Positions 9,028 to 61,920 are shown, numbered from the stretch's first letter. The stretch is 64,000 nucleotides of DNA from Patescibacteria group bacterium (GCA_022705905.1 JAKJDO010000004.1:374-64373); one strand, 5' to 3'. Program-made: numbers and translations. The notes: generated by a model not told the origin, from the letters alone.

Positions 9028-9396
9028 TCAGAAATGAGACAGCTCGAGAATCGCGCCGATGACGCTCGGCAGGTGGCTTTCGCCTAGGCATTGGTAGTTG
9101 CAGCCGGCCTGCACCAGCTCGTCAAGACGGCTGTGCCTTGCCACCGCAATGACAGGGATGGTCTGATTGACATCCCTGATTCGCCGTACTGTTTCTACGG
9201 CGCCGGGGTGGTCGCCGCACCCATCAATAACGATGATGGGGAAGCAATCGCTGGTCTTGGTAGCAGCGAGTTCGACTGCCGCTTTGACTGTTGTTTTGGA
9301 TACCGACAGATTACCGTCGGGCCAAACAACGCCCTGCTCGCAGATTGCACAGGTATCCGTCGTGCCGAGCACAAGAACTTTGATGCCCTTACTCAT
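9028..9396 (-). CDS. Orphan receiver-like (CheY/flavodoxin-fold-like) protein 1, degenerate
   Basis: SD AAGGAGGAG 6 nt upstream. Pattern IKVLVLG...PIIVIDGCGDHPGAVETVRRIR...IPVIAVARHSRLDELVQAGCNYQCLGE. Strongly GC-elevated. Confidence 0.5.
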   Translation of the reverse strand: MSKGIKVLVLGTTDTCAICEQGVVWPDGNLSVSKTTVKAAVELAATKTSDCFPIIVIDGCGDHPGAVETVRRIRDVNQTIPVIAVARHSRLDELVQAGCNYQCLGESHLPSVIGAILELSHF

Positions 9397-9452
9397 GTCC
9401 TACTCCTCCTTAGTTTTTTTTCCTAGCCAGTTAAGAACTAGAAAATTATATT

Positions 9453-9481
9453 AGTATATCAAAAATTGACAATAACGTCAA
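9453..9481 (-). promoter_or_regulatory. Promoter TTGACG-17-TATACT for receiver-like gene 1
   Basis: Minus strand reads TTGACGttattgtcaatttttgaTATACT, directly after the upstream terminator. Confidence 0.5.
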
Positions 9482-9487
9482 TAAGGC

Positions 9488-9528
9488 GAAAAATAGGAGG
9501 CCAGCTGATTATAAAAACTCAGCTGGCC
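9488..9528 (-). terminator. Terminator after receiver-like gene 2
   Basis: GGCCAGCTGA-10 nt-TCAGCTGGCC perfect hairpin followed by TCCTATTTTT on the minus strand. Confidence 0.75.
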
Positions 9529-9549
9529 GAAGTGATTGATCGTTGATTT

Positions 9550-9936
9550 TTAGGTTGGGGCCAGGATATTGCGGAAGAGGGTGCCGTCTTCGATTTTGCT
9601 TTTGATTACTTCATAGTCGTAACCGAGGACGCCAAGTTGTTGAAAAAGCTTATCGCGTTTTTCGATGGTGCCGCCGCCAGCGACAATGAGTCCCTGAAAA
9701 TTACGGGCCTCGAGATCATCCAAAATGGCTCGGTAGTCAAAACGCTGATCGCCCGGTGTTTGCTGGGTGTCAACATCCAGAATGATTACCGCAAACTCCC
9801 AGCAGTTAAGATAGTCAGAAGCCTGTTCATTGGAAAGAGCGGAAAAGATCAGCGCTCTTTTGAAAAGATCACCGCTCTTTATTCCAGAAGCAACGTTAAC
9901 TCGGTCGCAAACACACAGAATTTTTGGTCTCTTCAT
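9550..9936 (-). CDS. Orphan receiver-like protein 2, degenerate
   Basis: SD GGAGGAAG upstream. Pattern KILCVCD...FAVIILDVD...GLIVAGGG...GYDYEVIK. 18 nt downstream of gene 3, so probably co-transcribed. Confidence 0.45.
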   Translation of the reverse strand: MKRPKILCVCDRVNVASGIKSGDLFKRALIFSALSNEQASDYLNCWEFAVIILDVDTQQTPGDQRFDYRAILDDLEARNFQGLIVAGGGTIEKRDKLFQQLGVLGYDYEVIKSKIEDGTLFRNILAPT

Positions 9937-28330: not shown

Positions 28331-29602
28331 ATGATGGGGAAAATTATCCAAATTTGGAAAGCCAGAGACTTAAGGAATAAGATTCTTTTTGTCTTGAGCA
28401 TGCTAGTTATTTTCCGTTTTGCTGCGCACATTCCCGTTCCCGGTGTTAACGCCGAAGCTTTAAAAGAGCTATTTGCATCTAATCAAGTATTAGGATTACT
28501 TAATATATTTTCCGGCGGCAGTATGGAAAATTTTTCGATTGTCATGATGGGTGTCGGACCATATATTACCGCTTCTATTATTTTTCAACTTTTGGCCATG
28601 ATCGTCCCCAAGCTAGAGGAGATGCAGAAAGAAGAGCAAGGCAGGCAGAAGATAAATATGTGGACTCGCTGGCTAACAGTGCCGTTGGGGGCATTGCAAG
28701 CATTCGGCATGATTACTTTGTTAAAAAGATCTTCGGCTGGAATTGTTAGCGATGATACTTTGTTCAATCTAGTATGCATGATTATAACCATAACCGCTGG
28801 TACTATTTTTTTGATGTGGATCGGCGAACTTATTACAGAAAAGAAAGTCGGCAATGGTATATCTTTAATAATTTTTGCCGGCATCGTAGCCAGTTTGCCC
28901 CAGTCAATTTATGAAGTTTTGATTTCCTACGATCCTTCCAAATTATTTATGATAATCGGTTTTTTGATAATCGCCGTTATTACAGTTATAGGTGTAGTAA
29001 TAATAACCGAAGCACAACGAAATATTCCGGTACAATACGCTAAACAAATAAGAGGCAATCGTATGTTTGGCGGCACCAGCACGCACTTGCCTTTACGCGT
29101 AAATATGGCAGGTGTTATCCCGATTATTTTTGCCATCTCCGTTATTTTATTTCCTTCAATGATCGCTCAATTTTTTATCCATGCTCGCACAGCCTTTATA
29201 GCTAACGCGGCCGAATGGACAATTGAAGTTTTCAACAACCAATTAGTTTACGGTATTTTTTATTTTTTGCTGGTTTTTGCTTTTACTTATTTTTATACCG
29301 AAGTTATTTTTCATCCCAACCAAATCGCTGAAAATCTGCAAAAACAAGGCGGCTTTATTCCGGGCATTAGACCGGGTCGGCATACTAGCGAATATTTAGC
29401 CAACACCACACATAAAATTATATTAGTCGGCGCTTTATTTCTAGGTATAATCGCAATTTTACCTTTAATTTTACGTTATTTCACCGGCATTCAGTCTTTA
29501 GCCATTGGCGGCACCAGCTTGTTAATCGTTGTGTCGGTTGTAATTGAAACTATGAAACAAATTGAAGCGCAGTTGACCATGAGAGAATATGAAGGCATGT
29601 AG
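28331..29602 (+). CDS. secY: Preprotein translocase subunit SecY
   Basis: 10-TM protein; GVGPYITASIIFQLL, GISLIIFAGI, IPGIRPG motifs. Confidence 0.96.
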   Translation: MMGKIIQIWKARDLRNKILFVLSMLVIFRFAAHIPVPGVNAEALKELFASNQVLGLLNIFSGGSMENFSIVMMGVGPYITASIIFQLLAMIVPKLEEMQKEEQGRQKINMWTRWLTVPLGALQAFGMITLLKRSSAGIVSDDTLFNLVCMIITITAGTIFLMWIGELITEKKVGNGISLIIFAGIVASLPQSIYEVLISYDPSKLFMIIGFLIIAVITVIGVVIITEAQRNIPVQYAKQIRGNRMFGGTSTHLPLRVNMAGVIPIIFAISVILFPSMIAQFFIHARTAFIANAAEWTIEVFNNQLVYGIFYFLLVFAFTYFYTEVIFHPNQIAENLQKQGGFIPGIRPGRHTSEYLANTTHKIILVGALFLGIIAILPLILRYFTGIQSLAIGGTSLLIVVSVVIETMKQIEAQLTMREYEGM

Positions 29603-29626
29603 TAAAAAAATTTTTATACAGAAAAT

Positions 29627-29653
29627 AAAAAACCGGTTTAAAACCGGTTTTTT
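29627..29653 (+). terminator. Terminator after secY
   Basis: AAACCGG...CCGGTTT palindromic hairpin followed by a T run. Confidence 0.6.
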
Positions 29654-29671
29654 GGTTTTTGGTTTTAATTA

Positions 29672-29680
29672 TGTTATAAT
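29672..29680 (+). promoter_or_regulatory. Extended -10 element TGTTATAAT upstream of the ABC transporter genes
   Basis: Same ATGTTATAAT as at 941 and 50702; lies 57 nt before the ATG at 29737. Confidence 0.4.
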
Positions 29681-29736
29681 AAGTAAGGATTACTTAAAAT
29701 ATCAACAGCTATTTTTGTTGATTTTTTAGCTATTTT

Positions 29737-31527
29737 ATGGAGTCGATTATTAGAACTAAAAATTTAAATTTTGTTTATAATAAAGGCAAGGACAACGAGT
29801 TTCATGCTCTGGTTAATATTAATATGGAAATATACCCAGAAGAGTTTATTATGTTTTTTGGTCCTTCTGGTTGCGGTAAGTCAACCTTGCTTAACGTTGT
29901 AGCTGGCCTAGAAACGCCTGACGAAGGTAGTGAGGTAACGGTTTTAGGAAGAGATATGATGAAATTAACCAGCAAACAATTTGCCGAATATCACCGCAAT
30001 GATTTAGGTATGGTATTTCAGGCCTATAATTTAATTACTAGTTTATCGGTTTTGGACAACGTGGCTTTACCACAGATGTTTTTAAACGTGGGCAAGCGAA
30101 GAAGAGAAAAATGGGCCATGCAGCTATTAGAGCGGTTTGGCATTGATAAACAGTCAAAAAAAATTCCGACCGAGCTGTCTGGCGGTCAACAGCAGCGTAT
30201 CGGCATAGCTAGGGCTATTGTCAATAATCCTAAAATAGTTTTAGCTGATGAGCCGGTCGGTAACCTTGATTCAGTGTCAGCTAAAAATGTATTAGAAATA
30301 TTAGGTCAGCTGAATGAGATTGAAAAAAAGACTATTATAATGGTTACGCATAATCCGGAAAATTTAGTTTATGCTGACCGTATCTTTTATTTGAAGGACG
30401 GAACTATTATCCGTGAAGTGGTTAATAAAGATAAACATAAAGAGATAATGAAGCAGGAACAGAAAACGGCTGCCGCTGAAATTACCGATTTAATGCGCGC
30501 TTATCACGGTTTGACTCCGGAGCAAATCAATATTCTTATCATGCCCTATAAATCCAGAATTTTTGCCCATCATTTTATTACCTCGCGCAGTATGGAGGAG
30601 ACCAAGGTTTTTGAAGATATTATTCAACGCCGCTTAATGGGAACTGCCTCCGGTCAAGAAATGTTTGAAACATTACATCGTCCGTCTGTCGATGGCGGCG
30701 TTGGTTTTAATATTCATACAGCTGAAAAAATAATGGCTAGAATAAACAGGGCTTTGGAGATGTCTTATTTTGTTTACCAGACTCATCATCAAAAAAAGAA
30801 TGTTGACGGCAGCCATGAAAAAGTTACCGACGATGAAAAGGTTGAAAAGCTCACTACCTATTTGCTGCACACCTGTTATGATGAGCATGCTAAGAATTTA
30901 AAGCCGGAGCAAATAGTTCGTTTGAAAAAGGCTGTTAAAGATAGGATAACAAATGCTATACAGAAAAATGGTTTTTATACAGCTCTTGACCAGCCATTTA
31001 AAGAAGAGGGGGTTGGCTTAAATAGTGTCACAGCTAAAGACGTTACCGAAGAAATAGAGCTGATTTTGATTTTGGGTTTCGGTATCGTTAAAATAAATCC
31101 ACAAGATATCGAGGGACTTGATAGCGAAGACGATGATCAGGTGAAGCAAGCGGGAGATAAGACCGCTGACAAAGAGAATGCTCTAAATAGTTTGCAAGCA
31201 GACAGTAATATTGATCAAACAGAGAAGAAAGACGGTGAAGTAAAAGAGGGCATCATTTTAACAGTTGATAATTATCAGAGCGGTAATACAAAACATAACT
31301 TTTTGGACGGGATGAAAGAAGGGGGAGATAAGGGCAAAAAAGACACCATACAAGAAGAAAATAAAAATATAGTTGATGAGCAAGTAATTGACTCTAAAAA
31401 TGATAAGACCGAAGTAATCTTTGAGGAAGACACTTCTTTGCAGGATGCGATTATTGCGGCCCAAGAAAGAGAAAAACAACTAAAAGAAGCCGACAAAACG
31501 AATAAGGATAATAATCAATATTTTTAA
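29737..31527 (+). CDS. ABC transporter ATP-binding protein (MacB/LolD/FtsE-like) with ~370-aa C-terminal extension of unknown function
   Basis: Walker A GPSGCGKST, signature LSGGQQQR, Walker B VLADEP within the first ~225 aa. The remainder is helical then acidic and low-complexity. Confidence 0.85.
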   Translation: MESIIRTKNLNFVYNKGKDNEFHALVNINMEIYPEEFIMFFGPSGCGKSTLLNVVAGLETPDEGSEVTVLGRDMMKLTSKQFAEYHRNDLGMVFQAYNLITSLSVLDNVALPQMFLNVGKRRREKWAMQLLERFGIDKQSKKIPTELSGGQQQRIGIARAIVNNPKIVLADEPVGNLDSVSAKNVLEILGQLNEIEKKTIIMVTHNPENLVYADRIFYLKDGTIIREVVNKDKHKEIMKQEQKTAAAEITDLMRAYHGLTPEQINILIMPYKSRIFAHHFITSRSMEETKVFEDIIQRRLMGTASGQEMFETLHRPSVDGGVGFNIHTAEKIMARINRALEMSYFVYQTHHQKKNVDGSHEKVTDDEKVEKLTTYLLHTCYDEHAKNLKPEQIVRLKKAVKDRITNAIQKNGFYTALDQPFKEEGVGLNSVTAKDVTEEIELILILGFGIVKINPQDIEGLDSEDDDQVKQAGDKTADKENALNSLQADSNIDQTEKKDGEVKEGIILTVDNYQSGNTKHNFLDGMKEGGDKGKKDTIQEENKNIVDEQVIDSKNDKTEVIFEEDTSLQDAIIAAQEREKQLKEADKTNKDNNQYF

Positions 31528-31537
31528 ATAATTTTTT

Positions 31538-32737
31538 ATGTTAGTTACTGACATTTTCCGTTTAGCGACCAGAATGTTTCGCACCAACACATCTCGTACT
31601 CTGCTTACAATTTTAGGCATCAGCGTCGGTATTGGCGCTATTTTATTTTTACTTTCACTCGGTTATGGCTTGCAAAATTTGATTTTAAATCAGATTACTA
31701 CTTCTGACGCCCTATTGAGTTTAGATGTTACCGCCGGAGAAATTGAAAACTTAAAATTAAACGATGATTCTTTAAAGCAAATTAAAGAAACAATCGGCGT
31801 CGAAAAGGTTAGCCAGCTTATTTCCGCGCAAGGCCAAATGAAAGTTGGCGATATTTCAACCGAGCTGTTGGTGAATTTTGCCAATCAGGATTTTTTTAAA
31901 TTGGATGGCACGACTATTAAAAAAGGTGATTTTTATACCGACGAAGAAGGCGATAATAGTAAAATCATTATCTCTTCTTCGGCTTTGCAACTTTTTAATT
32001 TAAGTGAAGAAGATGCTTTTGAGAAAACAATTAAGTTTACTATATTAGTTCCGATTTTAGAAAATAGCAATGAAACCAAATCAGTCGAGCTTGACAATGA
32101 ATTTAAAATTGTTGGCATTATTCAAGAAGAAGGTTCTAACTACGCCTATATGCCGTTGTCTTGGGGCAATCAGCTAGGCATTAAAGATTATAATAAAATT
32201 AAAGTTAAAGTCAGATCGGAGGGCGACTTAACTATTGCTCGTAGCGCTATAATGGAAAAGGGTTATTCGGTCAGCGCTTTATCTGATATCATTGAGCAAG
32301 CCAAGCAGGTATTTAATATAGTTCAGATAGTTTTAGCTTCTTTTGGAGTTGTCGCCCTAATCGTCAGCGCCATTGGCATGTTTAACACTATGACTATTGC
32401 CCTTTTGGAAAGAACGCAGGAAATCGGTATTATGAAAGCTTTAGGGGCAACCAGCGGCGATGTTTGGCAGATGTTTCTAGCAGAAGCAGTAATTATCGGT
32501 TTTTTAGGCGGCTTGGGCGGTATTATTATCGGTTGGGCAGGCGGACAAGGATTTAATTATGGCATCAATTTGCTCGCCGGCGCTTTTGGCGGTGATAAAA
32601 TCGATATTTTTTATACGCCGTTTTGGTTTGTAACTTTAATTATTAGTTTTTCTACTATCGTTGGTTTGCTTACCGGTTTTTATCCAGCACGGCGAGCTGC
32701 TAAGATCAGTCCGTTAGTGGCGTTGAGATATAAATAA
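31538..32737 (+). CDS. ABC transporter permease, FtsX/MacB family
   Basis: N-terminal TM, ~230-aa extracytoplasmic domain, then 3 C-terminal TMs with the FtsX-type motif (IGIMKALGAT...). Confidence 0.85.
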   Translation: MLVTDIFRLATRMFRTNTSRTLLTILGISVGIGAILFLLSLGYGLQNLILNQITTSDALLSLDVTAGEIENLKLNDDSLKQIKETIGVEKVSQLISAQGQMKVGDISTELLVNFANQDFFKLDGTTIKKGDFYTDEEGDNSKIIISSSALQLFNLSEEDAFEKTIKFTILVPILENSNETKSVELDNEFKIVGIIQEEGSNYAYMPLSWGNQLGIKDYNKIKVKVRSEGDLTIARSAIMEKGYSVSALSDIIEQAKQVFNIVQIVLASFGVVALIVSAIGMFNTMTIALLERTQEIGIMKALGATSGDVWQMFLAEAVIIGFLGGLGGIIIGWAGGQGFNYGINLLAGAFGGDKIDIFYTPFWFVTLIISFSTIVGLLTGFYPARRAAKISPLVALRYK

Positions 32738-32791
32738 TGTAAAGTTGAAAAATCAAAATGAGTAATAAAAATATAAATTAATTTTTAAATT

Positions 32792-33073
32792 ATGAAATTG
32801 AATTATAGAGCATATTCGGAAGGATTGAAAAAAATATCAGGAGAAGAAATGAAAAAAAAGGTTGGCGTTGTAAGAATGAAAGATGCTTCTGGTAAATTTG
32901 AAAGATTAGAAGGAGCGGCTTTAAGATATAAAGTGGTCGACTTGGTTAGGGGAGGAAAATCTAGAATGCAAATAGTCGAGGAGCTAAAAAAAAGCGGAGT
33001 TAATATGGATCAGTTTGAAAAAAGAAATAAAATTATGGCCCTAATTGACTCTCTATATAGCAAGGAAAAATAA
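32792..33073 (+). CDS. Small basic hypothetical protein (paralogous to the N-terminal region of the next gene)
   Basis: 93 aa. Shares LKKIS...V(R/K)MK..GK...K(V/I)..L...G...L.K pattern with 33140..34138. Confidence 0.55.
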   Translation: MKLNYRAYSEGLKKISGEEMKKKVGVVRMKDASGKFERLEGAALRYKVVDLVRGGKSRMQIVEELKKSGVNMDQFEKRNKIMALIDSLYSKEK

Positions 33074-33139
33074 TAAATGATTTTCTATTTTACATTGTCA
33101 TTTTGCATTTTGATTTTTTAATTTTAAATTTTAGATATA

Positions 33140-34138
33140 ATGTCTCTTTTATTTCCATCTCCAAGTAGTAATTCTAAACCGTCGCTCTCTAAGAATTTCA
33201 AAGTTAGCAGTCAAACACAGCTAAAGAAAATTAGCCAAACTTATTGGCGCAACCAATTGCCAAAAAAGGGTATAAAAATGAAAGGCGAGGACGGAAAATT
33301 GTCTTACTTTAAACACCCAGCAGTACAGGCAAAGATTTTTCAGTTGTTAAAGAAAAGAGGCCATGTTACCGAAACAACTTTGGGGGAAGACTTGATGAAA
33401 GAGAGGGTAAAATCTCTTGATCGTGCTAAAGTAATCAATGCTTTGCGCGGTAAATTTGCTAAAAAGGAGGACGGCGCTTTAACTTCTGAGGAAATTTTAG
33501 CTAACGTTAAACGATCGCGGGCAGTTAGCCGTTTAATGAGCACTAAAGGGATGTCAAAAGCCCAGGAGATTGCCAGGGGCAGGCACACAGAGAACATAAA
33601 AGAAAAATTTAAAGAAGAAACCTACGCTCGTTTGAATGTTCATGGTGAGAGCCATGCTGTTAGCGCTCTTGGCGGTCAGATGGTTAACCCTGACGATGCG
33701 CGTTATAAGGAACAGCAAGGCGGGAATAATGGGCCTGCGACTAGCGCTGTTAACCGCGGTCCAATTAAATCTGTCACTGTTGGCAGTAAAGATATATCGA
33801 GTGGCAAGGAGAAAGAATCGTCTCTGGCCCCCGGACTTGGTTTGAAAAAAACAGAGAAAAATAAGGGAGGAGCTGATCCTAATAATCAAAAAAAAGAAAG
33901 TGGAGTTTTTGGCAACATTGTTTCTTTGGCCGAAAAAAAGAATAGAATTTTAGGAGAGGAAAACGTCCAGCCAAATGATGACGAGGTTTTAAGACCCCAT
34001 ATTTTAGGCAGAGGACCAGTTTTTGATTCAGAATGGCAGGGCGGTGTTGTTCTCAGAAAAGGTAGAAAAACAATGCATTTTCCTGAGGATAAAAAAGACA
34101 ATAGCGAGGAAGATTTTCAATATAAAAAAGCTGCATAA
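33140..34138 (+). CDS. Basic hypothetical protein, 332 aa
   Basis: Long ORF immediately upstream of adk; Lys-rich; no recognised domain. Confidence 0.6.
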   Translation: MSLLFPSPSSNSKPSLSKNFKVSSQTQLKKISQTYWRNQLPKKGIKMKGEDGKLSYFKHPAVQAKIFQLLKKRGHVTETTLGEDLMKERVKSLDRAKVINALRGKFAKKEDGALTSEEILANVKRSRAVSRLMSTKGMSKAQEIARGRHTENIKEKFKEETYARLNVHGESHAVSALGGQMVNPDDARYKEQQGGNNGPATSAVNRGPIKSVTVGSKDISSGKEKESSLAPGLGLKKTEKNKGGADPNNQKKESGVFGNIVSLAEKKNRILGEENVQPNDDEVLRPHILGRGPVFDSEWQGGVVLRKGRKTMHFPEDKKDNSEEDFQYKKAA

Positions 34139-34146
34139 TTAAAAAA

Positions 34147-34809
34147 ATGAAAAAAACTATTATATTATTTTTTGGACCGCCCGGTTCGGGCAAGGGAACG
34201 CAAAGTGATGCGCTTGGGCAGAAACTGAATCTGCCCGTTATTTCTCCAGGCGAATTATTACGCCACGAAGAAGAAAAAAGAACAAAATTAGGCTTGTTGG
34301 TGTCAAAAAATTTGGCTAACGGCAAGTTGGTTTCCGACAGTATTATTGACAAGATTCTTAGCGCTAGATTAGTACGACCAGATGCTAGGCGCGGTTTTAT
34401 TCTTGACGGTTATCCTCGCAACAAGTCTCAGTTGGAATGGTTAAAGAAAAAAATAAAAAGAATCTCAAAAATTGAAGATAAAATAATAGCTATTCATATT
34501 AATGTTAGCGACAGAGAAGTTAAGTCACGTATCGGCGGTCGTCGCGTTTGCGATTGTGGCGCCGCTTATCACCTAAAACATAATCCGCCAATTCACATTG
34601 GTCTTTGTGATTTGTGCGGTAAAAAATTAAAACAAAGAGAAGATGACAAGCCGAAGATTGTTAAAGAGAGACTGTCTCATTTTCGTAAATCAATTAAATC
34701 AATTGTTGGTTATTTTAAGAAAAATTATACATTCATTAATGTGGACGGTGAACAAAGTATAAAAGCTATTGAATTAGAAATTACTAAAAAAATAAATGAA
34801 TTGAAATGA
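34147..34809 (+). CDS. adk: Adenylate kinase (zinc-lid type)
   Basis: GPPGSGKGTQ P-loop; lid CDCG...CDLCG. Confidence 0.95.
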   Translation: MKKTIILFFGPPGSGKGTQSDALGQKLNLPVISPGELLRHEEEKRTKLGLLVSKNLANGKLVSDSIIDKILSARLVRPDARRGFILDGYPRNKSQLEWLKKKIKRISKIEDKIIAIHINVSDREVKSRIGGRRVCDCGAAYHLKHNPPIHIGLCDLCGKKLKQREDDKPKIVKERLSHFRKSIKSIVGYFKKNYTFINVDGEQSIKAIELEITKKINELK

Positions 34810-35634
34810 ATGATTAGAATAAAAACAGAGGCAGAAATAAATATTTTAAGGCAGGGAGGCAAAATTTTAGCCGGAGTTCTTAATGAAGTGGCTAAAGTTG
34901 TTAAGCCTGGAGTAACGACAGCTGACCTAGAAAACTTAGCTTTAAAGCTTATCAGCGAGGCTGGAGGCCGTCCAGCTTTTAAGGGTTTAAAAATGTATAA
35001 TCGTAAACATTTCCCTACCGCCCTATGCACTTCTATTAATGACGAAATAGTTCATGCTCCGGCTTTGCCGGCGCGCGAATTTAAAGCAGGCGACATTGTC
35101 GGCATTGATATCGGCATGGAGTATCCCCTAAATAGCAAAAAAAGTAAAGACGTTTATAATCGATTCTCAAAAAAAGGCGGCTATTATACCGATATGGCTA
35201 TTACGGTGCCAGTCGGCGCTATAAATAAAGACATAAAGAAGCTAGTAGATGTAACAAGGCAGTCTTTATATGAGGGAATAAAAGAAGCAAAGGCTGGAGT
35301 TCGTTTAAATAATATTGGACGCGCTATACAAAAATATGTCGAGAGTCAAGGTTTTTCAGTAGTACGGGAGCTGGTCGGGCATGGCGTCGGACATGAGATT
35401 CATGAAGATCCTCAGGTTTTAAATTATGCCATGAAAAACAGCAGAGAAGATAATATTGAATTAAAGCCAGGAATGGTTTTGGCAATCGAGCCGATGGTTA
35501 ATCTTGGTAAATGGCATGCTCGCGAAGCACCTGATGGTTTTACCATCGTTACCCATGACGGCAGTTTAAGCGCTCATTTTGAGCATACAGTCGCCATTAC
35601 GAATGATGGTCCAGTAGTACTTACAGCATTGTAA
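34810..35634 (+). CDS. map: Methionine aminopeptidase type I
   Basis: HGVGHEIHEDP, AIEPM metal-ligand blocks. The ATG abuts the adk TGA. Confidence 0.95.
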   Translation: MIRIKTEAEINILRQGGKILAGVLNEVAKVVKPGVTTADLENLALKLISEAGGRPAFKGLKMYNRKHFPTALCTSINDEIVHAPALPAREFKAGDIVGIDIGMEYPLNSKKSKDVYNRFSKKGGYYTDMAITVPVGAINKDIKKLVDVTRQSLYEGIKEAKAGVRLNNIGRAIQKYVESQGFSVVRELVGHGVGHEIHEDPQVLNYAMKNSREDNIELKPGMVLAIEPMVNLGKWHAREAPDGFTIVTHDGSLSAHFEHTVAITNDGPVVLTAL

Positions 35635-36991: not shown

Positions 36992-39736
36992 ATGACAATA
37001 CTTGATAGGTATGACTTTAATATAGGACTAATAATAAGCGGCTTGGTTTGTTCGTGCTGTGCCAAGAGAGATAAAGATCGCAGTTCGTCAATGGAAAAAA
37101 TGATTGAGATCATTTTCCCGAGAATCATTCGATCAGGCGGCGTTGAAATAGCCAGGGGAGATCTGCGCGTATCTACTAGTGATCTTCGCCACTCTAACTG
37201 TATTTTTTTTGAGGACTGCTGTTATTTTGCAGCCGAGGAAGTCCACACAGACGTTTTTATATGCCTTGGTTGTCCTTTTCAGAGAATAAAAGTAGTCGAT
37301 AAGGACGTCGACAAGGCGAGAAGGCTATATTGGAATAGAAGGGCGGATCGTAGCATGAAGGCGTTTACTTCCGAGGTAATGCAGATAATCGAAAACGGCA
37401 AAATAATTAGCGTGGATCAAAAAGATTCTCGCATCAAGACCATTAGAGAGTGCATCAAAGTCAATCTAGAGAAGTTTTTGATCGCAGACGGCGACCTGAG
37501 AAAAATTGAAGGTTCTGGATTAATAATTGATATGGTTCGCGCCAAGAATCAAAAAGGGGAAAAAGCAGCAATCTTCAGAATTCAAAACAAGAGGTTGCTG
37601 TCTATTCCTATCGACGATGGTACAAGCACAGATGCTCAAGAACGAGATACGAGCATCTTGGCAACTGCCATCAGATCAATCCTGAGAACTAAGCAGGAAG
37701 ATTGTTGCTCCAGTAAAAAAAGCGAAAGATTTGCTTTTGTCTTGGGAGGATTACTTATCCCCGGACTAGAGACCCCTCAAGACATCGCCGGGAAAGTGTG
37801 CGCCGATTTAATGAGTCTGTGCCCTGATTTAGACATTGACATTTTGAGCGATAAAGAACTAGCGGAAGAGCTGGTACGAAGAGAACAAGCTCAATCCGAC
37901 ATAGTCATTGACGAAGCTAGTGAAGATGGAGATGAAGCAGAGCCAGAAACAGCGCCAGAAACAGATGAACAAATTGTATCCCAAGATCAAGGACGCGATC
38001 TACCGCCAAAACAGGATGAATGCCCCCGAGAGCTTCCTTCTCCAAAGTTAGATGAAGTCGTTCAAGAGATCATACAACCAGGAGATGAAAAAGCATCCTC
38101 GTTTGTTATCCCGTCAAGATTCAAGATCGTTCCTATTGAAGATGAAAGTTTGCTTACTGACGCCTGGATTTCTTCAAAGGCTAAGTATGACGACCTTTCC
38201 TTGGCGTCCGGCAACAAGAGAAGTAACTTTGTTATATTCATTGGAAACAGCAATGATGACATTGAGTTGTCTCTCACAGAGAGGCATATGGATTGCCTGG
38301 CTACAGAATTCTCGTGGCTTACCGGAGTCGAGCTACGAGTTGACATTGTAGTAGACAATGTTTTTGGCGAAAGAGAAATGTGGAAGATCTATAGAAACGT
38401 AACCTTAGAACAGCTCTCCAAAATCATGGCCGACTCTTATCAGAAGACCGAACGGCAGGTGTCGTGGTGCTCTTTGCATCCAAAGACGAAGAAGTCGAAA
38501 GTGGCAAAGGAGCGGAGGAGTCGAAAGAAGTCTACTCCAACTTTTTCGCCTGCAGATCCAGCCATTTGGGAGAAGCTCGATTCTACTATCAGCTATTTCA
38601 TCCAAAGATTTTCAGGAAAGAAGAAAGGCCGGCAAGACTTTGTTCTCATCATCAACGGTGCCAGGTACGACCTTCAAAGCATTGATCGGCGGACAGCCAG
38701 ATGTATTGACATGGCAAGCCAAGAGATTCTGGGAGAAAAAATTCAGCTGCTTAGTGTCAACCATAACGGCAAGCTAGTACCTATCGCAACCAAGGAAGGC
38801 GGCATAGTCGGCCGTGAAGTCAACTGCTACCTGTATCCAAAAACGAAGAAGCCAAAAGCAGTAAAGGAGCCAGTCAGCAGAAAAAGGTCTGTCCCTACTT
38901 TCTTATCTGCAGATCCAGCTATCCAGGAAAGGCTTAACCCTGTTATCAACTATTTTACTCGGAGATTTTCTGGAAAAGAGAAAAACAAGCAGGATTTCAC
39001 TCTCGTCATCAACGGTACCGGGTATGAACTTCAGAATGTCGATATGCGAACAGCTAGATGTATTAAGATGGCCGTTGAGTTAAAGCTAGAATCTGACGTT
39101 AGGCTGTTTAGCATCAATAAAATCGGCAAACTGGCGGCGATTAAAGTTAGCGGTTATAGCGTCCGGCGTGAAGTAGAGAAATACTTGCATCCGGAGGAGA
39201 AGAAACTGAAGATCGTGAAGGGGCGAGTAGACAGAAAAAAGTTCGTTTCAACCTTTTTGCCCGCAGACCCCACTGTTCAGGAGCAGCTCAGTCCCATCAT
39301 CTTTTACTTCACCCAGAATACCTTTGGTAAAGAAAGCGGTAAACGTGACTTTGTCCTTGTCATCAACTGCGCCAGGTATGATCTGAAGGACACCAACAGA
39401 AAAGTAGCCAGATGCATTAAGTTAGCCGTCGAGGCAAAACTAGCAACTGACATCAAGTTGTTTAGTGTCAATAAGACAAGCAAACTAGTGTCGATCGAAG
39501 CTAAGGGCAACGGTGTCCAACGGGAGGTGGAGCGCTACCTGCATCCGAAGCCGAGGAAGTCGAAGGAAAAAAAACAAGGTCGACTTAAGACCGAGTTTAT
39601 CATTGTTTCTGGAGGGGTCAGGTCAAGCTATTTCAGTTTGAGTGAAATGACCAAGGTGCTGCGCGCAGTATGCAAGGCGAGGGAAATCAGCCAGGTCATA
39701 GTGGCTATTAAACCTATGGCAAAACCTGTAATTTGA
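36992..39736 (+). CDS. Large orphan protein (914 aa) built from tandem ~118-aa modules, unknown function
   Basis: SD GAGGAGGAG. Three full in-frame repeats at 38477-38833, 38834-39187 and 39188-39541, plus degenerate copies on both sides. GC-elevated. No recognised domain. Confidence 0.8.
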   Translation: MTILDRYDFNIGLIISGLVCSCCAKRDKDRSSSMEKMIEIIFPRIIRSGGVEIARGDLRVSTSDLRHSNCIFFEDCCYFAAEEVHTDVFICLGCPFQRIKVVDKDVDKARRLYWNRRADRSMKAFTSEVMQIIENGKIISVDQKDSRIKTIRECIKVNLEKFLIADGDLRKIEGSGLIIDMVRAKNQKGEKAAIFRIQNKRLLSIPIDDGTSTDAQERDTSILATAIRSILRTKQEDCCSSKKSERFAFVLGGLLIPGLETPQDIAGKVCADLMSLCPDLDIDILSDKELAEELVRREQAQSDIVIDEASEDGDEAEPETAPETDEQIVSQDQGRDLPPKQDECPRELPSPKLDEVVQEIIQPGDEKASSFVIPSRFKIVPIEDESLLTDAWISSKAKYDDLSLASGNKRSNFVIFIGNSNDDIELSLTERHMDCLATEFSWLTGVELRVDIVVDNVFGEREMWKIYRNVTLEQLSKIMADSYQKTERQVSWCSLHPKTKKSKVAKERRSRKKSTPTFSPADPAIWEKLDSTISYFIQRFSGKKKGRQDFVLIINGARYDLQSIDRRTARCIDMASQEILGEKIQLLSVNHNGKLVPIATKEGGIVGREVNCYLYPKTKKPKAVKEPVSRKRSVPTFLSADPAIQERLNPVINYFTRRFSGKEKNKQDFTLVINGTGYELQNVDMRTARCIKMAVELKLESDVRLFSINKIGKLAAIKVSGYSVRREVEKYLHPEEKKLKIVKGRVDRKKFVSTFLPADPTVQEQLSPIIFYFTQNTFGKESGKRDFVLVINCARYDLKDTNRKVARCIKLAVEAKLATDIKLFSVNKTSKLVSIEAKGNGVQREVERYLHPKPRKSKEKKQGRLKTEFIIVSGGVRSSYFSLSEMTKVLRAVCKAREISQVIVAIKPMAKPVI

Positions 39737-40063: not shown

Positions 40064-41413
40064 ATGTATTTAACTTCTTTTGAAGCAACAAGCCAAATTG
40101 GCAAAGAAATAACTCTAAAAGGATGGGTTAACGCACGACGTGATATGGGTAAGGTTGTCTTTTTTGATTTGCGTGATCGAGCTGGTATCATCCAAGTTGT
40201 GGGCGTACCTTCAGAGTTGGATGAAGGTTCGCAAGTTAACATGAAAGAAGCTCGACCGGAATGGGTTTTAGAAATTAAAGGAGTTGTGCAAGAGCGCGGT
40301 GCTAAACAAAGAAATCCCAACATGCCAACAGGTGATATTGAAGTATTGGCAAAAGAGATTAAAGTTCTAGCTAAAGCCGAACCGTTGCCATTAGATTTAG
40401 AAGATGAAAAAATGGGGCTCGATGTTTATCTTGATCATTTACCAATTACTTTACGTACCGCTAAAGCCCGGGCTTTATTTAAGACACAGGCGGAAATTGC
40501 TGAGGCCTTCCGTGCTTTTATGCGCTCCAAAGGTTTTACAGAAATTCAGGCACCAAAAATTGTCGGCGAATCAACCGAAGGCGGTGCTAATGTTTTTACG
40601 ATTGATTATTTTGGCACCAAAGCTTTTTTAGGTCAGAGTCCACAGTTTTACAAACAAATTATGGTTGGAGTTTTTGAGCGTGTTTTTTCTGTCGGCAATG
40701 TTTATCGTGCCGAAGAACATTCAACCAGCCGTCATATCAATGAATATACCAGTCTGGATATGGAAATGGGTATGATTAGAAACCATACGGATATTATGGA
40801 AATAGAAACAGAATTATTAAAATATATTGTCGAGCATTTAAAGAAGACTGTGCCTGACGAATTAAAAGTTTTAAATTTTGTCGAGCCATTGCTTCCAGAA
40901 AAAATTCCGGCTCTGAAACTTAGAGAGGTTCAAGAAATCATTAAAAAAGAAACTGGCGCTGATCACACCAATGAGCCAGATTTAGAACCAAGCGAAGAGC
41001 GTTGGATTTGCGAATATGTAAAAGAGAAATTCGATTCCGATTTTATTTTCGTAACCCATTATCCGACTTCAAAAAGACCAATGTATACTTATCCAGACGA
41101 AACCGATCCAGAATTTACTAAAAGTTTTGACTTATTATTCCGCGGCATTGAAATTACAACTGGCGGCCAACGTATTAATGATTACGAACAGTTAGTCGGC
41201 AATATTAAAAAGTGGGGAATGAATCCGGACGATTTTAAGTTCTATCTAGAAGCATTTAAATATGGTATGCCGCCAGAAGGAGGGCTGGGTATGGGCCTAG
41301 AAAGATTGACTGCCAAACTATTTAATATAGACAATGTTAAAGAGGCAACACTTTTCCCGCGCGACTTAAATCGTATTGATTTACAAATTTCCTTGCCTGA
41401 CGATAAAAAATAA
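40064..41413 (+). CDS. aspS: Aspartate--tRNA ligase, short (archaeal/eukaryal-like, no GAD insertion) form
   Basis: OB-fold N-terminus ([24 protein letters not shown]), class II motifs ([21 protein letters not shown]); 449 aa. Confidence 0.9.
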
Positions 41414-41417
41414 TAAT

Positions 41418-42809
41418 ATGAAAAAAATAACAGTAAAACAAATCTTTAAAGAAAAAGAAAAATATATCGATCAAGAAGTTGTTATTAATGGTTGGGTGCG
41501 GACATTGCGCTCATCCAAGAATTTTGGTTTTATAGAACTGAACGACGGTACATTTTTCAAAAGCATACAGGTTGTCTTTGCAGATAAACTAAAGAACTTT
41601 GATGATATAGCTAAAACAACTATCGGTTCGTCTTTAGTAGTTGAAGGTAAACTCATAAAATCTCCGGCTGAGGGTCAAGAATTTGAAATTCAAGCTAGTA
41701 AAATTGAAGTGGTTGGTTTAGCTGATGCAGATTATCCCTTGCAAAAGAAAAAACATTCTTTTGAATTTTTGCGTACCATTGCTCATTTACGCAGTCGTAG
41801 TAATACTTTTTCTGCTGTCTTTCGCGTGTCGTCGAAATTAGAATATGCTATCCACAAGTTTTTTCAGGAGCGTGACTTTGTCTACATCCATTCACCGATT
41901 ATAACAGCCAGCGATTGTGAAGGTGCTGGTGAGATGTTTCAGATTACGACTTTAGATCTAAATAAATTACCCAAAAATGATAAAGGCGAAGTAGATTTAA
42001 AAGAAGATTTTTTCGGTAAACGAGCTGGTCTAACAGTTAGCGGTCAATTAAATGCAGAGACGATGGCTATGGCTTTTCAAAAAGTTTATACATTTGGGCC
42101 GACTTTCCGCGCTGAAAATTCAAATACCACCAGGCATGTGGCTGAATTTTGGATGTTGGAGCCAGAAATGGCTTTTGCCGATTTGGAAGATGATATGCAT
42201 CTGGCCGAAGAAATGATAAAATATTTAGTAGATTATATCCTGACCGAATGTCCGGAAGAGATGGAGTTTTTTAATAAATTTATCGAGCCGACATTATTGG
42301 AGCGTTTACATAATTTGCGCACAGCTGAATTTAAAAAGATGACTTACACTGAAGCGATTAATATTTTAGAAAAAGCTGATGTAAAATTTGAAGTGCCGGT
42401 TAAGTGGGGAATTGATTTACAGACTGAACACGAACGTTATTTGACTGATAAAGTAGTGAAAGGACCGGTGTTTGTGACGGATTATCCAAAAGAATTTAAA
42501 GCTTTTTATATGCGCCTGAACGATGACAAAAAAACAGTAGCTGCAGTTGATTTACTTGTCCCGGGCGTTGGTGAAATTATTGGTGGTAGTCAAAGAGAAG
42601 AAAGACTAGATGTTCTAAAAGCTAGAATGAAGGAATGCGGAATTAAAGAGGAGGATTTAGAGTGGTATTTAGACACACGTCGTTTTGGTGGAGCGCCACA
42701 CGCTGGTTTCGGTCTCGGTTTTGAACGAGCATTAATGTATTTAACCGGTATGGCGAATATCCGCGACGTTATTCCTTTTCCGCGGACACCGAAGAATGTT
42801 GATTTCTAA
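41418..42809 (+). CDS. asnS: Asparagine--tRNA ligase
   Basis: [52 protein letters not shown] motifs. ATG at 41418 preferred over the overlapping 41376 start. Confidence 0.9.
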
Positions 42810-59755: not shown

Positions 59756-59771
59756 AAAATTTTTCCAGTAA

Positions 59772-59832
59772 ATCGGTCTCTAATTCCACTCTTCGTGAAG
59801 AGCATGGGGCGCTACCCACAACTCCTGCAAAA
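59772..59832 (+). other. Degenerate copy of the 3' two-thirds of tRNA-Trp
   Basis: ATCGGTCTC (anticodon-stem start) and ACAaCTCCTGCAAAA (acceptor 3' end plus trailer) match tRNA-Trp 58437-58445 and 58475-58490. The middle has diverged. Confidence 0.5.
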
Positions 59833-59867
59833 AACGTTCTGCCTACAATTGACAGAACGTTTTTTTC
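59829..59867. terminator. Bidirectional terminator
   Basis: AACGTTCTG-11 nt-CAGAACGTT hairpin flanked by A6 and T7. Confidence 0.75.
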
Positions 59868-59884
59868 GGATGAGCTTTTGTTAT

Positions 59885-60136
59885 TCATGATTTGCCATTC
59901 GCTTGGCTGGCGATTTTTTTTATTTCGTCAAAACCTTCTCTTAATGTATGAAGATTTTCTCCTATATAGCAGAATATGGAATTTAAGCGTTCAAGCGGGT
60001 CAAACGTTGTTTCGCGGATGCGATCAATTTCTGCCTGTAAAACCGCTAGTTCCGGATGCTCTGCAATAAGATTTTGTATTTCTGCCTTTAACCTCTCTAT
60101 TTCGGGACTCTCTTCGGTTATTGTTTTGATAGCCAT
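59885..60136 (-). CDS. GC-shifted orphan helical/coiled-coil protein, 83 aa
   Basis: SD AAGGAGG 7 nt upstream; heptad-like PEIERLKAEIQNLIAEHPELAVLQAEIDRIRE. No family recognised. Confidence 0.55.
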   Translation of the reverse strand: MAIKTITEESPEIERLKAEIQNLIAEHPELAVLQAEIDRIRETTFDPLERLNSIFCYIGENLHTLREGFDEIKKIASQANGKS

Positions 60137-60300
60137 GGATCATGCCTCCTTGTTTTTTTATTATATTTTCACAATACTTTTAAAATGTCAATGTTAAACA
60201 TGCGATATTTTAAAGAATTTTTAATTTTTTTAATTTATTGTAAATATTGGAAGCTTTATGATAAGATAAAATAATAGTAATAAATAAAAAAGTAAAAATT

Positions 60301-60624
60301 ATGACAAAACATTTTACTGATGAAAACTTCGCCAAGGAGGTTGTAGAAGTTTCTAAGACCAAGCCAGTGCTAGTTGATTTTTTTGCCGAATGGTGCGGGC
60401 CATGCAAATTACAAGGATCGATTATTGATCAGCTGGCTGATGAGATGGGGGAGGCGGCAGCTATTGGCAAAATGAATGTTGAAGAATCGTCTAAAACAGC
60501 CGAGGAGTATGGGGTTATGACCATTCCCACCTTAATCGTTTTTAAAGACGGAAAATCAGTCGCTAATTTTACCGGTCTGCAAAACAAAGATAGTTTGATG
60601 ACTCAAATAAAAAAATACCTATAA
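60301..60624 (+). CDS. trxA: Thioredoxin
   Basis: WCGPC active site; 107 aa. Confidence 0.93.
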   Translation: MTKHFTDENFAKEVVEVSKTKPVLVDFFAEWCGPCKLQGSIIDQLADEMGEAAAIGKMNVEESSKTAEEYGVMTIPTLIVFKDGKSVANFTGLQNKDSLMTQIKKYL

Positions 60625-60719
60625 TTTATTGGTGTTTTTTTATACTTTGCTGTATAATATACATAGTTTATTCACAAATTAACGCAAATTAATAAATAAT
60701 TATTAAGCAGTAAAAATTT

Positions 60720-61004
60720 ATGGCAAAAATGACCAAGTCCCAATTGCTAACCGTTTTGTCTGAAGCCCAGGGCTTAAGCAAAAAACAAGTTGTTGGCTTA
60801 TTGGATGGTTTAGCTTCTTTGGCTTATAAAGAAGTAAAAAAGGGTGGAGAATTCGTTTTGCCCGGCTTTGGTAAGCTGGTAAAAGTAAATAGAAAGGCCA
60901 GGATGGGCAGAAATCCCGCTACTGGTGCTCAAATCAAGATCCCGGCAAAAGTTGTGGTTAAATTTCGCCTAGCAAAAGCTGTAAAAGACGCAGTACTAAA
61001 ATAG
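60720..61004 (+). CDS. hup: HU family DNA-binding protein
   Basis: MTKSQLL...GFGKL...RMGRNPATGAQIKIPAK arm motif. Confidence 0.92.
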   Translation: MAKMTKSQLLTVLSEAQGLSKKQVVGLLDGLASLAYKEVKKGGEFVLPGFGKLVKVNRKARMGRNPATGAQIKIPAKVVVKFRLAKAVKDAVLK

Positions 61005-61016
61005 TAGAATATTTTA

Positions 61017-61054
61017 ATAAAACACCGTCCTGATCATTCGGGACGGTGTTTTAT
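61017..61054 (+). terminator. Rho-independent terminator after hup
   Basis: AACACCGTCC-10 nt-GGACGGTGTT followed by TTATTGTTT. Confidence 0.75.
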
Positions 61055-61084
61055 TGTTTATTTAAAGAAATTTTTTTGAAAGAT

Positions 61085-61366
61085 TTATTCTTTCCATTTA
61101 TCTATGTATTGACCGATACCGTGTTGATTTAATTTATTTTTTAATTTAGTTTTTTCAAGCAAAAAGTGGATAACTGATGAAAAATCTATTAGATAACGGT
61201 TTTTAACGATTTTATAGCGTAAAATACCCCCCTGGATAGCTCGGCGAATAGTTTTAGTTTTTACACCGCCAAATTTAGCAGCTTCAGAAACAGACAGCCA
61301 AATAGGATTGGTTATGTTCGAGGTTGTTAAGAAAAGATTGTTTTTATCTTTTTTTTGCTCTGTCAT
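61085..61366 (-). CDS. Helix-turn-helix DNA-binding protein (excisionase/MerR-like HTH)
   Basis: WLSVSEAAKFGGVKTKTIRRAIQGGILRYKIVKNRYLI matches the excisionase-type HTH pattern. Confidence 0.7.
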   Translation of the reverse strand: MTEQKKDKNNLFLTTSNITNPIWLSVSEAAKFGGVKTKTIRRAIQGGILRYKIVKNRYLIDFSSVIHFLLEKTKLKNKLNQHGIGQYIDKWKE

Positions 61367-61374
61367 CGTATTTT

Positions 61375-61395
61375 TAGTCTAATATTTTTTAGACT
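61375..61395. promoter_or_regulatory. Palindromic operator-like site 1 (AGTCTAA-N6-TTAGACT)
   Basis: Perfect 7-bp arms starting 10 nt upstream of the HTH gene start codon. Confidence 0.5.
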
Positions 61396-61437
61396 TAAAT
61401 TACAATTTATTTTATATTAGAGAAAATTGCTTATTAT

Positions 61438-61457
61438 AGTCTAATTTAATGTAGACT
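61438..61457. promoter_or_regulatory. Palindromic operator-like site 2 (AGTCTA-N8-TAGACT)
   Basis: 6-bp arms with the same half-site as site 1. Confidence 0.45.
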
Positions 61458-61521
61458 TTAATGCTATATTATTAGAATAAATTAATGTTTTAGCTCGGCA
61501 ATGAATAACAAAAAATATTTT

Positions 61522-61540
61522 AGTCTATCTTATTATAGAC
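61522..61540. promoter_or_regulatory. Palindromic operator-like site 3 (AGTCTA-N8-TAGAC)
   Basis: 5-6-bp arms with the same half-site. Confidence 0.4.
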
Positions 61541-61887
61541 AAAAGATTATAATGTTTATATATTTTTTCACATTTATAAAAAAAAATCAAGAGCATTATC
61601 ACGCAACACAAAACACATAACAAATAACATTTTTTACATTATTTTTTTTATGTGTTTTTGCACCCTATGTTAAGTTGTATTATTTGCTTTTTTTGAGTAA
61701 TTATGATATTCTCGGTATTAACGGCTTAGAGAAAAAGACGCAAATAAAATTATTCGTTTTCCCAATATTTTAGCTAAAATTAATCAATTTTCTTCTACAA
61801 TGAATTAATATAAAGAGATCGGGCAAAAATAGGTTTAATCCTGTGTTTTTTTGTTCTCTTTTTAGTTTATTTTTAGCGACAAAAAAG

Positions 61888-61913
61888 TGTAACATTTTGC
61901 CATTTTAAACGTA
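61888..61913 (+). promoter_or_regulatory. ECF-type promoter TGTAAC-N16-CGTA directly upstream of the ECF sigma gene
   Basis: TGTAACattttgccattttaaaCGTA. The -10 ends 7 nt before the ATG at 61921, which implies a leaderless or near-leaderless mRNA. Confidence 0.55.
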
Positions 61914-61920
61914 TAATTAA

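Follow-up and report, generated by a model that had tools for sequence, protein, structure and literature searches.

What does an ABC ATPase with a long C-terminal extension, followed by an FtsX/MacB-type permease, do between secY and adk, in the midst of genes for translation and housekeeping? The question is raised by a 64-kb stretch, here called the window, of the genome of a Patescibacteria group bacterium; an exact protein match names its source as Parcubacteria group bacterium ADurb.Bin316, on a contig of 1.06 Mb. Features are on the + strand unless stated otherwise. The original prediction, made from the sequence, had placed four non-ribosomal genes between secY and adk, and all four open reading frames (ORFs) were found there on the + strand. 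As far as can be told from sequence, the first two encode a member of a lineage-specific type VII ABC family that is defined by a new cytoplasmic domain, the C-terminal domain (CTD) of the ATPase. The pair is fixed and syntenic in the secY...map region across the Falkowbacteria/Parcubacteria clade, and for its CTD the libraries searched contain no matching described family and no matching solved structure. It is probable, on balance, that this Patescibacteria-specific variant of the MacB/LolCDE/FtsEX class heads its own operon and works as a mechanotransducer of the envelope, in which the CTD serves cytoplasmic regulation or docking.

The ATPase-permease pair and its place after secY

The window consists largely of genes for translation and housekeeping on the + strand; in the part of interest their order is L18, S5, L15, secY, ATPase, permease, ORF3, ORF4, adk, map, ruvX and recO. 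The features around the four genes are as follows.

28331-29602, +, secY, end of the spc-type ribosomal protein cluster and upstream boundary of the locus (Pfam SecY, E=1.6e-105; L15, S5 and L18 upstream)
29626-29654, +, intrinsic-terminator-like hairpin of 13 pairs, AAAAAACCGGTTT/AAACCGGTTTTTT, then a T-rich run (from the sequence; in 17/17 relatives)
29672-29680, +, predicted extended -10 promoter element TGTTATAAT (read from the sequence)
29701-29727, +, small AT-rich hairpin and T-run within the ATPase 5' leader (sequence and RNAfold)
29737-31527, +, ATPase gene (gene 1), 596 amino acids (aa) (ORF)
29737-30411, +, MacB/LolD-type ABC nucleotide-binding domain (NBD), ATPase residues 1-225 (Pfam ABC_tran, E=1.3e-32)
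31538-32737, +, permease gene (gene 2), 399 aa (ORF; begins 10 nt past the ATPase stop codon)
32792-33073, +, ORF3, 93 aa (ORF)
33140-34138, +, ORF4, 332 aa (ORF)
34147-34809, +, adk (Pfam ADK, E=2e-35)
34810-35634, +, map (Pfam Peptidase_M24)

The ATPase had been described as MacB/FtsE-like with a cassette ending near residue 225. This is borne out by the LolD model of NCBIfam, which covers residues 4-224 and places the end of the ABC cassette at residue 224-225. The translation has intact Walker A (GPSGCGKST), Q-loop, signature (LSGGQQQR), Walker B (IVLADEP) and H-switch (THN) motifs, by which the NBD is shown to be catalytically intact. The DarD, LolD, MacB, DevA and FtsE models of NCBIfam scored the NBD at 176-199 bits, every one well under its equivalog cut-off. 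The nearest solved NBD chains are those of S. pneumoniae Spr0694 (5xu1_A, E=1e-53) and MacB (5lil, E=2e-50), and further solved relatives include MJ0796, BceA, YtrE (E=4e-43) and LolD.

The permease has the four transmembrane (TM) segments and the large external domain that had been expected of it. Hydropathy places the segments at about residues 19-46, 256-291, 311-336 and 357-383, and Pfam assigns MacB_PCD to residues 21-238 (E=1e-22) and FtsX to residues 268-392 (E=1e-21). The topology is thus TM1, an extracytoplasmic domain of ~210 aa (MacB_PCD) and then TM2-TM4 (FtsX domain). The protein aligns with MacB (5lil) over its full length (E=1e-26), and the best-scoring solved homologue of TM2-TM4 is B. 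subtilis YtrF (9o9x, E=3e-28). The two genes are adjacent and co-inherited: the permease gene follows the ATPase gene in every related locus with downstream sequence, and also in distant family members. Judged by domain content and topology, the gene pair is a split type VII ABC system of the MacB/FtsX type in the structural sense of the term. No paralogous ABC or permease copies were found in the 64-kb window, the locus having one permease gene, and PADLOC defence models gave generic ABC and LolE similarity only.

A terminator and a promoter had been proposed to follow secY, and the hairpin with its T-run and TGTTATAAT are present there in this order. The hairpin is predicted to terminate the secY transcript. 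Among relatives with short secY-to-ABC spacers, all 17 intergenic regions have TG(T/G)TATAAT on the 3' side of the terminator, in the same order of hairpin with T-run and then promoter element; the terminator/promoter pair therefore exceeds chance, and the ATPase gene would head its own transcription unit clade-wide. A promoter scan omitted TGTTATAAT because a -35 match is absent. Hairpins are found in the leaders of relatives too, with no conservation of sequence, and an Rfam search of the whole window gave three tRNAs only, with neither a leader nor a riboswitch ahead of the ATPase gene. Downstream, ORF4 and adk are separated by 8 nt and adk directly abuts map. Because of this spacing, adk and map are probably co-transcribed with the four genes and dependent on the ATPase unit in this genome. 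No recognisable Shine-Dalgarno sequence was seen upstream of the five starts at 29737, 31538, 32792, 33140 and 34147, and their leaders are A/T-rich.

The four genes had been regarded as inserted, a description that does not hold for the pair. In the 35 loci compared, the genes are arranged as L15-secY-(0-9 kb variable)-ABC(CTD)-permease-(0.6-3.5 kb variable)-[adk]-map-ruvX-recO. Upstream of the pair, secY is found in 29 of the 35 loci, and three of the other six are short of flank; map lies downstream in 20/35, and adk is found between permease and map in 8/35 only. The gene order shared by relatives therefore marks the pair as ancestral and fixed at this junction throughout the clade, and not as a local insertion. 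Nor do the four genes form a conserved unit: when their co-occurrence was checked in relatives, only the ATPase and the permease were invariant.

The variable segments on either side of the pair have contents of their own. A hotspot of insertion, the secY-to-ABC spacer spans 2-9 kb in seven loci (L001, L005, L007, L020, L021, L028 and L029), and its cargo in relatives includes AAA ATPases, a reverse-transcriptase-like ORF, patatin with TetR, and PBP_like_2 with a HAMP protein. Right after the first pair, a second, paralogous ABC gene with a MacB-type permease gene is found at 9868-12500 of L005 and also in L020, L022 and L028; the second ABC of such loci has 441 aa, 36% identity and a weak CTD match (23-30%), and its permease is 40% identical. 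In many relatives, the slot downstream of the permease holds a Na/Ca-exchanger-family gene.

The C-terminal domain and acidic tail of the ATPase

Beyond the NBD, the ATPase continues for 371 aa. The extension of ~370 aa that had been called an extra domain is real; it is not a single domain, being composed of a rigidly conserved 208-aa CTD and then a tail, which has 144 aa here and 7-178 aa elsewhere. Its parts are as follows.

30469-31092, +, CTD, all-helical, ATPase residues 245-452 (conservation and AlphaFold2 (AF2) model)
30604-30783, +, CTD repeat unit 1, residues 290-349, containing GGVGFNIHTAEKI (hhalign, half against half)
30916-31095, +, CTD repeat unit 2, residues 394-453, containing EGVGLNSVTAKDV (hhalign, half against half)
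31093-31527, +, acidic low-complexity tail, residues 453-596 (144 aa), pI 4.3, net charge -18 (charge computation)
31435-31485, +, short conserved tail motif SLQDAIIAAQEREKQLK, residues 567-583 (recurrence near the C-terminus in many homologues)

A search with residues 226-596 found 163 proteins, nearly all of them ABC ATPases of 450-640 aa from metagenome bins of Falkowbacteria, Parcubacteria and Patescibacteria. With its homologues the ATPase aligns end to end, start codon included. The block of 217 aa at residues ~240-456 has no insertions or deletions across 116 homologues and is conserved at the level of the catalytic domain. The AF2 model of the CTD, built on an 83-sequence alignment, is confident (predicted local distance difference test (pLDDT) 82, core >90) and shows two tandem four-helix units linked by a beta-hairpin. 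In this model a Gly-rich loop in each unit, GGVGF or EGVGL, leads into a long helix; the loop has the pattern 'LD.P...GG.G(F/L)...TA'. The two similar helical units that had been noticed reflect a true internal duplication with a unit of ~60 aa: hhalign of residues 245-350 against 351-456 gave a probability of 98.4% and E=7e-15 over 60 columns. Even the most remote members of the family retain the duplicated 'LD.P...GG.GL...TA' signature. With a pI of 6.6 and a net charge of -2, the CTD is near neutral.

The extension had been considered unusual for this transporter class, and the searches agree. Domain searches, structure prediction and Foldseek gave no known accessory domain: residues 226-596 have no match to the known ABC accessory domains (TOBE, NIL, CBS and others) in Pfam, NCBIfam, PDB or Foldseek. 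With the whole protein, no Pfam or NCBIfam match was obtained for the CTD or the tail, and sub-fragments (halves, repeat units, tail) had none in Pfam even at E<=10. In PDB, phmmer and a profile search of the CTD gave nothing significant, the best profile match being at E=0.033; a match of 33 residues to the N-terminus of an archaeal TyrRS (E=0.03) was judged to be chance. Foldseek with the AF2 model of the CTD gave a best E of 0.84 in PDB (TM-score <=0.22) and of 0.44 in BFVD (overall TM-score <=0.26). Two-repeat folds of the TFIIB/Brf/cyclin kind top both Foldseek lists and, at a TM-score of ~0.2, were rejected as evidence. Searches of the literature on Patescibacteria or the candidate phyla radiation in connection with type IV pili, giant proteins, FtsX or MacB turned up no account of the CTD or of the secY-linked arrangement. 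Neither a known accessory domain nor a scattering of the core pair in relatives was thus found.

The tail is as acidic as had been supposed. In homologues it is unalignable and acidic, with a median length of 98 aa. It is presumably disordered, its pLDDT being <50 where it was modelled. The motif SLQDAIIAAQEREKQLK is a candidate for a tethered interaction peptide.

How far the family extends was examined with a profile of the CTD only (A2) in a HMMER scan of 1.84 billion representative proteins, in which clusters were counted. Of the 262 representative clusters found at E<=1e-3, 152 also passed E<=1e-10. In every match with at least 200 residues before it, the CTD is C-terminal to an ABC NBD, and in ten architecturally unusual members Pfam found ABC_tran plus the CTD and nothing else. 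All members with organism names belong to candidate division WWE3 or to Patescibacteria. A scan of 185,579 species genomes, limited by a pattern, gave 30 CTD-ABC loci, titled Falkowbacteria, Parcubacteria or Patescibacteria, or in two cases 'bacterium' only; four of the 30 are from bins labelled 'uncultured Gammaproteobacteria', with a gene order identical to that of the others. In public annotation the CTD proteins are labelled 'ABC transporter ATP-binding protein' only, and the CTD is therefore invisible to annotation-based surveys.

Other contexts, downstream genes and further features of the window

The pair is also found outside the secY context. Eight CTD-ABC/permease contexts lack secY in the available flank, namely those of seven distant family members and that of locus L004, which is within the clade; this sample is small, and its two pilus-operon loci are probably from related organisms. 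In six of the eight (L004, L036, L037, L039, L040 and L042), the pair adjoins giant repeat proteins with fn3/Pur_ac_phosph_N domains, and in some cases Kelch, which have at least 780 aa and in some cases >3000 aa. The giant gene is downstream of the pair in L042 and upstream in the other five, and in L036, L037 and L039 it ends 1-5 nt before the ATPase start. The giants of L036, L037, L039 and L040 end alike, in ...LTPxKKxSxxxLIxxxxE(E/D)(T/A)F(S/G)(W/F)L. In L038 and L041, the pair belongs to a type IV pilus operon arranged as PilB-receiver-ABC(CTD)-permease-PilC. The PilB of these operons carries an MshEN domain, and on the longer contig of L038 prepilin-like genes, PilM and PilN come after PilC. 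The positions are as follows.

L036, 868-6999; L037, to 6996; L039, 1765-7995; L040, to 6979: giants of 2000 to >3000 aa upstream of CTD-ABC
L038, 5795-18601; L041, 5790-14005: pilus operons with receiver, CTD-ABC and permease genes between pilB and pilC

The ATPases of the two pilus operons have a Lys-rich repetitive N-terminal extension, of ~250 aa in the 697-aa protein of L041 and of ~440 aa in the 866-aa protein of L038.

The last two of the four genes had been described as encoding basic proteins of unknown function, and that description stands: ORF3 (pI 9.9, net charge +10) and the very basic ORF4 (pI 9.9, net charge +23) have no TM segment and no match in Pfam, NCBIfam or PADLOC. By their homologues, both are real genes, fast-evolving and poorly conserved. 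ORF3 has 22 homologues, every one hypothetical, and belongs to a small family restricted to Patescibacteria; ORF3-like genes lie directly downstream of the permease gene in L003, L009 (two copies), L017, L029 and others. The AF2 model of ORF3 (pLDDT 79) had no Foldseek match in PDB. ORF4 has only 8 homologues. Some of these end in a receiver (REC, Response_reg) domain, such as P0124 (470 aa), and a close homologue, P0125 (567 aa), is fused in frame to adenylate kinase (Adk); the ORF4 of the window has no receiver domain. A hidden Markov model (HMM) of the ORF4 family, with bias correction, recovered only L017 (E=4e-11) among the positional analogues in relatives, and a larger single-linkage BLAST cluster of ORF4 is for this reason unreliable as homology. 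ORF3 compared with the N-terminal ~85 aa of ORF4 gave E=0.017 in BLASTP and a probability of 56% with E=1e-4 in hhalign, which is suggestive only of ORF3 corresponding to an N-terminal module of ORF4. Since ORF3-like and ORF4-like genes are present only in some relatives, the four genes are not a conserved quartet.

Elsewhere in the window, several features were noted. At 36992-39736 (+), after recO, is a 914-aa ORF without Pfam or PADLOC match, the GC content of which is 0.43-0.45 against ~0.36 in its flanks. Its C-terminal half contains ~3.5 protein repeats of ~118 aa, each opening with YLHP(K/E).KK, and these repeats are undetectable as DNA tandem repeats. Tandem paralogues of class II aminoacyl-tRNA synthetase of the Asp/Asn/Lys type are encoded at 40064-41413 and 41376-42809 (+); they have an OB anticodon-binding domain and tRNA-synt_2, and the listed ORFs overlap by 38 nt. 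The kilobase with the highest GC content in the window (0.48) is at 9028-9936 (-), where two minus-strand ORFs of 122 and 128 aa lie amid a + strand region; by eye they are receiver-domain-like, and the segment may be a foreign island. At 61001-62000 the GC content is very low (0.257), and ~59756-61920 has no ORF of at least 120 aa.

What the pair may do

Mechanotransmission is the mechanism of the MacB family (PMC5985334, PMC12646458). From family membership, ATP-driven extracytoplasmic movement with no passage of substrate through the membrane would be expected of this pair as well. Its operon would start at the conserved terminator/extended -10 junction after secY, with read-through via ORF3 and ORF4 into adk-map most likely. 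In the manner of the type VII systems already characterised, ATP-driven closure of the NBD dimer would act through the long TM1 and TM2 helices on the extracytoplasmic domain, and this domain would do mechanical work on something at the membrane's outer face instead of pumping solutes across the membrane. The likeliest clients would be membrane-anchored or surface proteins, because distant CTD-ABC members adjoin giant fn3 proteins or sit between pilB and pilC.

For the CTD, a structural role is suggested because it is so strongly constrained. C-terminal cytoplasmic domains are found on the NBDs of MalK (TOBE), MetN (NIL) and OpuAA (CBS), where they could dimerise beneath the NBDs and gate ATPase activity. 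The CTD may likewise lie beneath the NBDs as a dimeric regulatory or docking platform, similar to MalK and MetN in logic and not in fold: those proteins are ATPases of importers whose folds, beta-rich or CBS, are recognised by Pfam, whereas the present domain is all-helical and duplicated, has no Pfam match and is borne by a type VII NBD. The acidic tail and its terminal peptide could tether a cytoplasmic partner, for which the basic ORF3 and ORF4 products or receiver-domain proteins are candidates; the charges are complementary (net -18 for the tail, +10 for ORF3 and +23 for ORF4).

Known systems differ from the pair in several respects. The MacB family, such as MacB of E. coli and A. actinomycetemcomitans and Spr0694-0695 of S. 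pneumoniae, has an NBD of the same MacB/LolD/MJ0796 subtype and a permease part with, likewise, four TM segments, MacB_PCD between TM1 and TM2 and a C-terminal FtsX domain. Here, however, NBD and permease are separate polypeptides without a MacA-type adaptor or TolC, the genes are in a secY...adk-map operon, and the NBD bears the duplicated helical CTD of 208 aa and the acidic tail, which are not described in a review of the MacB family. The pair is not MacAB because there is neither an NBD-permease fusion nor an adaptor. No membrane-fusion adaptor (MacA/HlyD-type) gene is adjacent, the only other genes of the unit being ORF3 and ORF4, and the MacB model of NCBIfam scored 193 bits with the ATPase and 105 bits with the permease against a cut-off of 966. 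The missing MacA and TolC fit a bacterium inferred to be monoderm; an outer membrane is not expected in Patescibacteria. LolCDE, which is also split into NBD and permease, extracts membrane-anchored proteins at the outer face of the membrane, the type of activity proposed here. It differs in that LolD has no CTD, and the present locus has one permease gene and no LolA or LolB. The pair is neither FtsEX nor LolCDE because the models score below cut-off (195.9 against 307.75 bits for LolD and 70.6 against 362.45 for LolC/E; FtsEX is taken up below) and the extracytoplasmic domain is of the MacB type.

A more specific proposal, which we put forward tentatively, is that CTD-ABC and permease deploy, release or actuate surface appendages in Patescibacteria, namely giant fn3 proteins via their C-terminal module and type IV pili, and that the CTD and tail take input from receiver or basic partners, the copy in the window being a constitutive version built into the secY-adk-map operon. 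Host contact in Patescibacteria has been attributed to large surface proteins that carry adhesion domains (PMC13059738).

Several points weigh against these proposals. The substrate, the role of the CTD and any partner of the tail are all inferred, and gene spacing is the sole basis for co-transcription of adk and map. The association with clients comes mainly from distant members, the CTDs of which are ~23-35% identical, L004 being the sole exception within the clade; the 64-kb window itself holds no giant surface protein, giant C-terminal module or pilus gene. ORF3-like and ORF4-like genes are present inconsistently in relatives, and in a small-sample comparison of tail motif type with downstream gene family covariation was not demonstrated. 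That the CTD has no known fold means no solved fold (PDB) and no viral-predicted fold (BFVD). The housekeeping position of the operon fits a role in cell division or envelope maintenance equally well.

Could the pair instead be an ordinary detoxification pump like MacB, YknYZ or BceAB, which clears the membrane or its outer leaflet of antimicrobial peptides, toxins or hydrophobic compounds and carries the CTD as a lineage-specific decoration? Among the MacB relatives characterised in monoderm bacteria, such pumps are the most common (PMC5985334), and the best NCBIfam and PDB similarities are to DarD (the darobactin exporter), MacB, Spr0694/0695, BceA and bacteriocin exporters. Every one of these scores is, however, far under the equivalog cut-offs, and in the operon an adaptor (MacA/YknX), a two-component sensor and an immunity gene are all missing. 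Pumps for resistance tend to be accessory and mobile, whereas this pair is fixed in a housekeeping operon clade-wide; its CTD is constrained as strongly as the catalytic domain, and distant members adjoin surface proteins or pili and no resistance genes. We therefore regard a detoxification pump as unlikely.

Less likely again is an equivalent of FtsEX or YtrEF, that is, a mechanotransducer of division or the cell wall that activates an extracellular peptidoglycan hydrolase and is joined through its CTD and tail to division proteins in the cytoplasm, much as FtsE contacts FtsA or FtsZ. FtsEX is a type VII system of core cell physiology, the ATPase of which communicates with cytoplasmic partners, and the housekeeping, constitutive position of the operon would suit such a role. 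The succession of CTD, tail and motif, with a folded domain before a disordered linker and a terminal peptide, resembles tethers that the divisome uses. YtrEF of B. subtilis (9o9x, ytrGABCDEF operon), whose YtrF is the nearest solved match to the permease TM domain, is from a monoderm and is split into ATPase and permease as here; the ytr operon affects wall thickness, and the phenotype is envelope-related rather than one of efflux (PMC8060467). YtrEF differs from the pair in that the match to YtrF is confined to the TM part, the YtrE chain in 9o9x has 251 residues and is too short for a 208-aa CTD and a tail, and its operon partners and regulation (YtrA) are other ones. As for FtsEX, the FtsE model scored 176.5 bits (cut-off 264.85) and the FtsX models 37-40 (cut-offs 225-255). 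The extracytoplasmic domain matches MacB_PCD, Pfam's model of the FtsX extracellular domain not having been checked separately, and the operon has no adjacent hydrolase or activator and no EnvC/PcsB-like coiled-coil partner. Canonical ftsE and ftsX have moreover been reported in other Patescibacteria (PMC13059738).

It is improbable that the CTD is a module for binding nucleic acid or nucleotides, in which the 'GGVG...TA' loops would bind phosphate in the manner of a helix-hairpin-helix (HhH) or P-loop and serve DNA uptake or a second messenger. What is most conserved family-wide is the duplicated G-rich loop at the N-terminus of a helix, type IV pili mediate DNA uptake in many bacteria, and some members are in type IV pilus operons, where a receiver protein and an MshEN-domain PilB are their neighbours. 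The HhH consensus is h-x-x-h-x-G-h-G-x-x-x-A, with two helices joined by a short hairpin. In the AF2 model the loop between the flanking helices has ~11 residues (model residues 90-100), longer than the canonical hairpin, and the spacing from G-x-G to the conserved Ala is two residues longer than in the consensus. There is no HhH or other Pfam family even at E<=10 and no significant Foldseek match to a DNA-binding fold, and the domain is not basic. On account of profile, loop length, spacing and near-neutral charge, the HhH or P-loop reading of the loops was rejected.

A recent foreign or mobile insertion at the secY-adk junction, for which the hotspot in the secY-to-ABC spacer of relatives might speak, is extremely improbable and effectively refuted because of the synteny (the same position in 29/35 loci and in many species), besides which GC content and GC skew at 29-35 kb are those of the flanks and no repeat, integrase or tRNA boundary is present, and an annotation artefact by read-through or ORF fusion is just as improbable given the abundant full-length homologues of 450-640 aa and their end-to-end alignment.

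An envelope mechanotransducer controlled through its CTD thus remains the reading that we favour. Type VII systems that do mechanical work in the envelope include MacB, LolCDE, FtsEX, BceAB and YbbAP, and their cytoplasmic control is poorly understood. A duplicated CTD that is constrained like the catalytic core, together with a tethered peptide, would offer a handle on the cytoplasmic control of mechanotransmission. Attachment to hosts by pili and giant proteins is central to Patescibacteria, and the secY-linked module is a testable candidate for the handling of such proteins by a cell that has a minimal genome and is inferred to be monoderm. If the proposal that the pair operates surface appendages is true, it would represent a previously unrecognised route of envelope biogenesis in ultrasmall episymbiotic bacteria.

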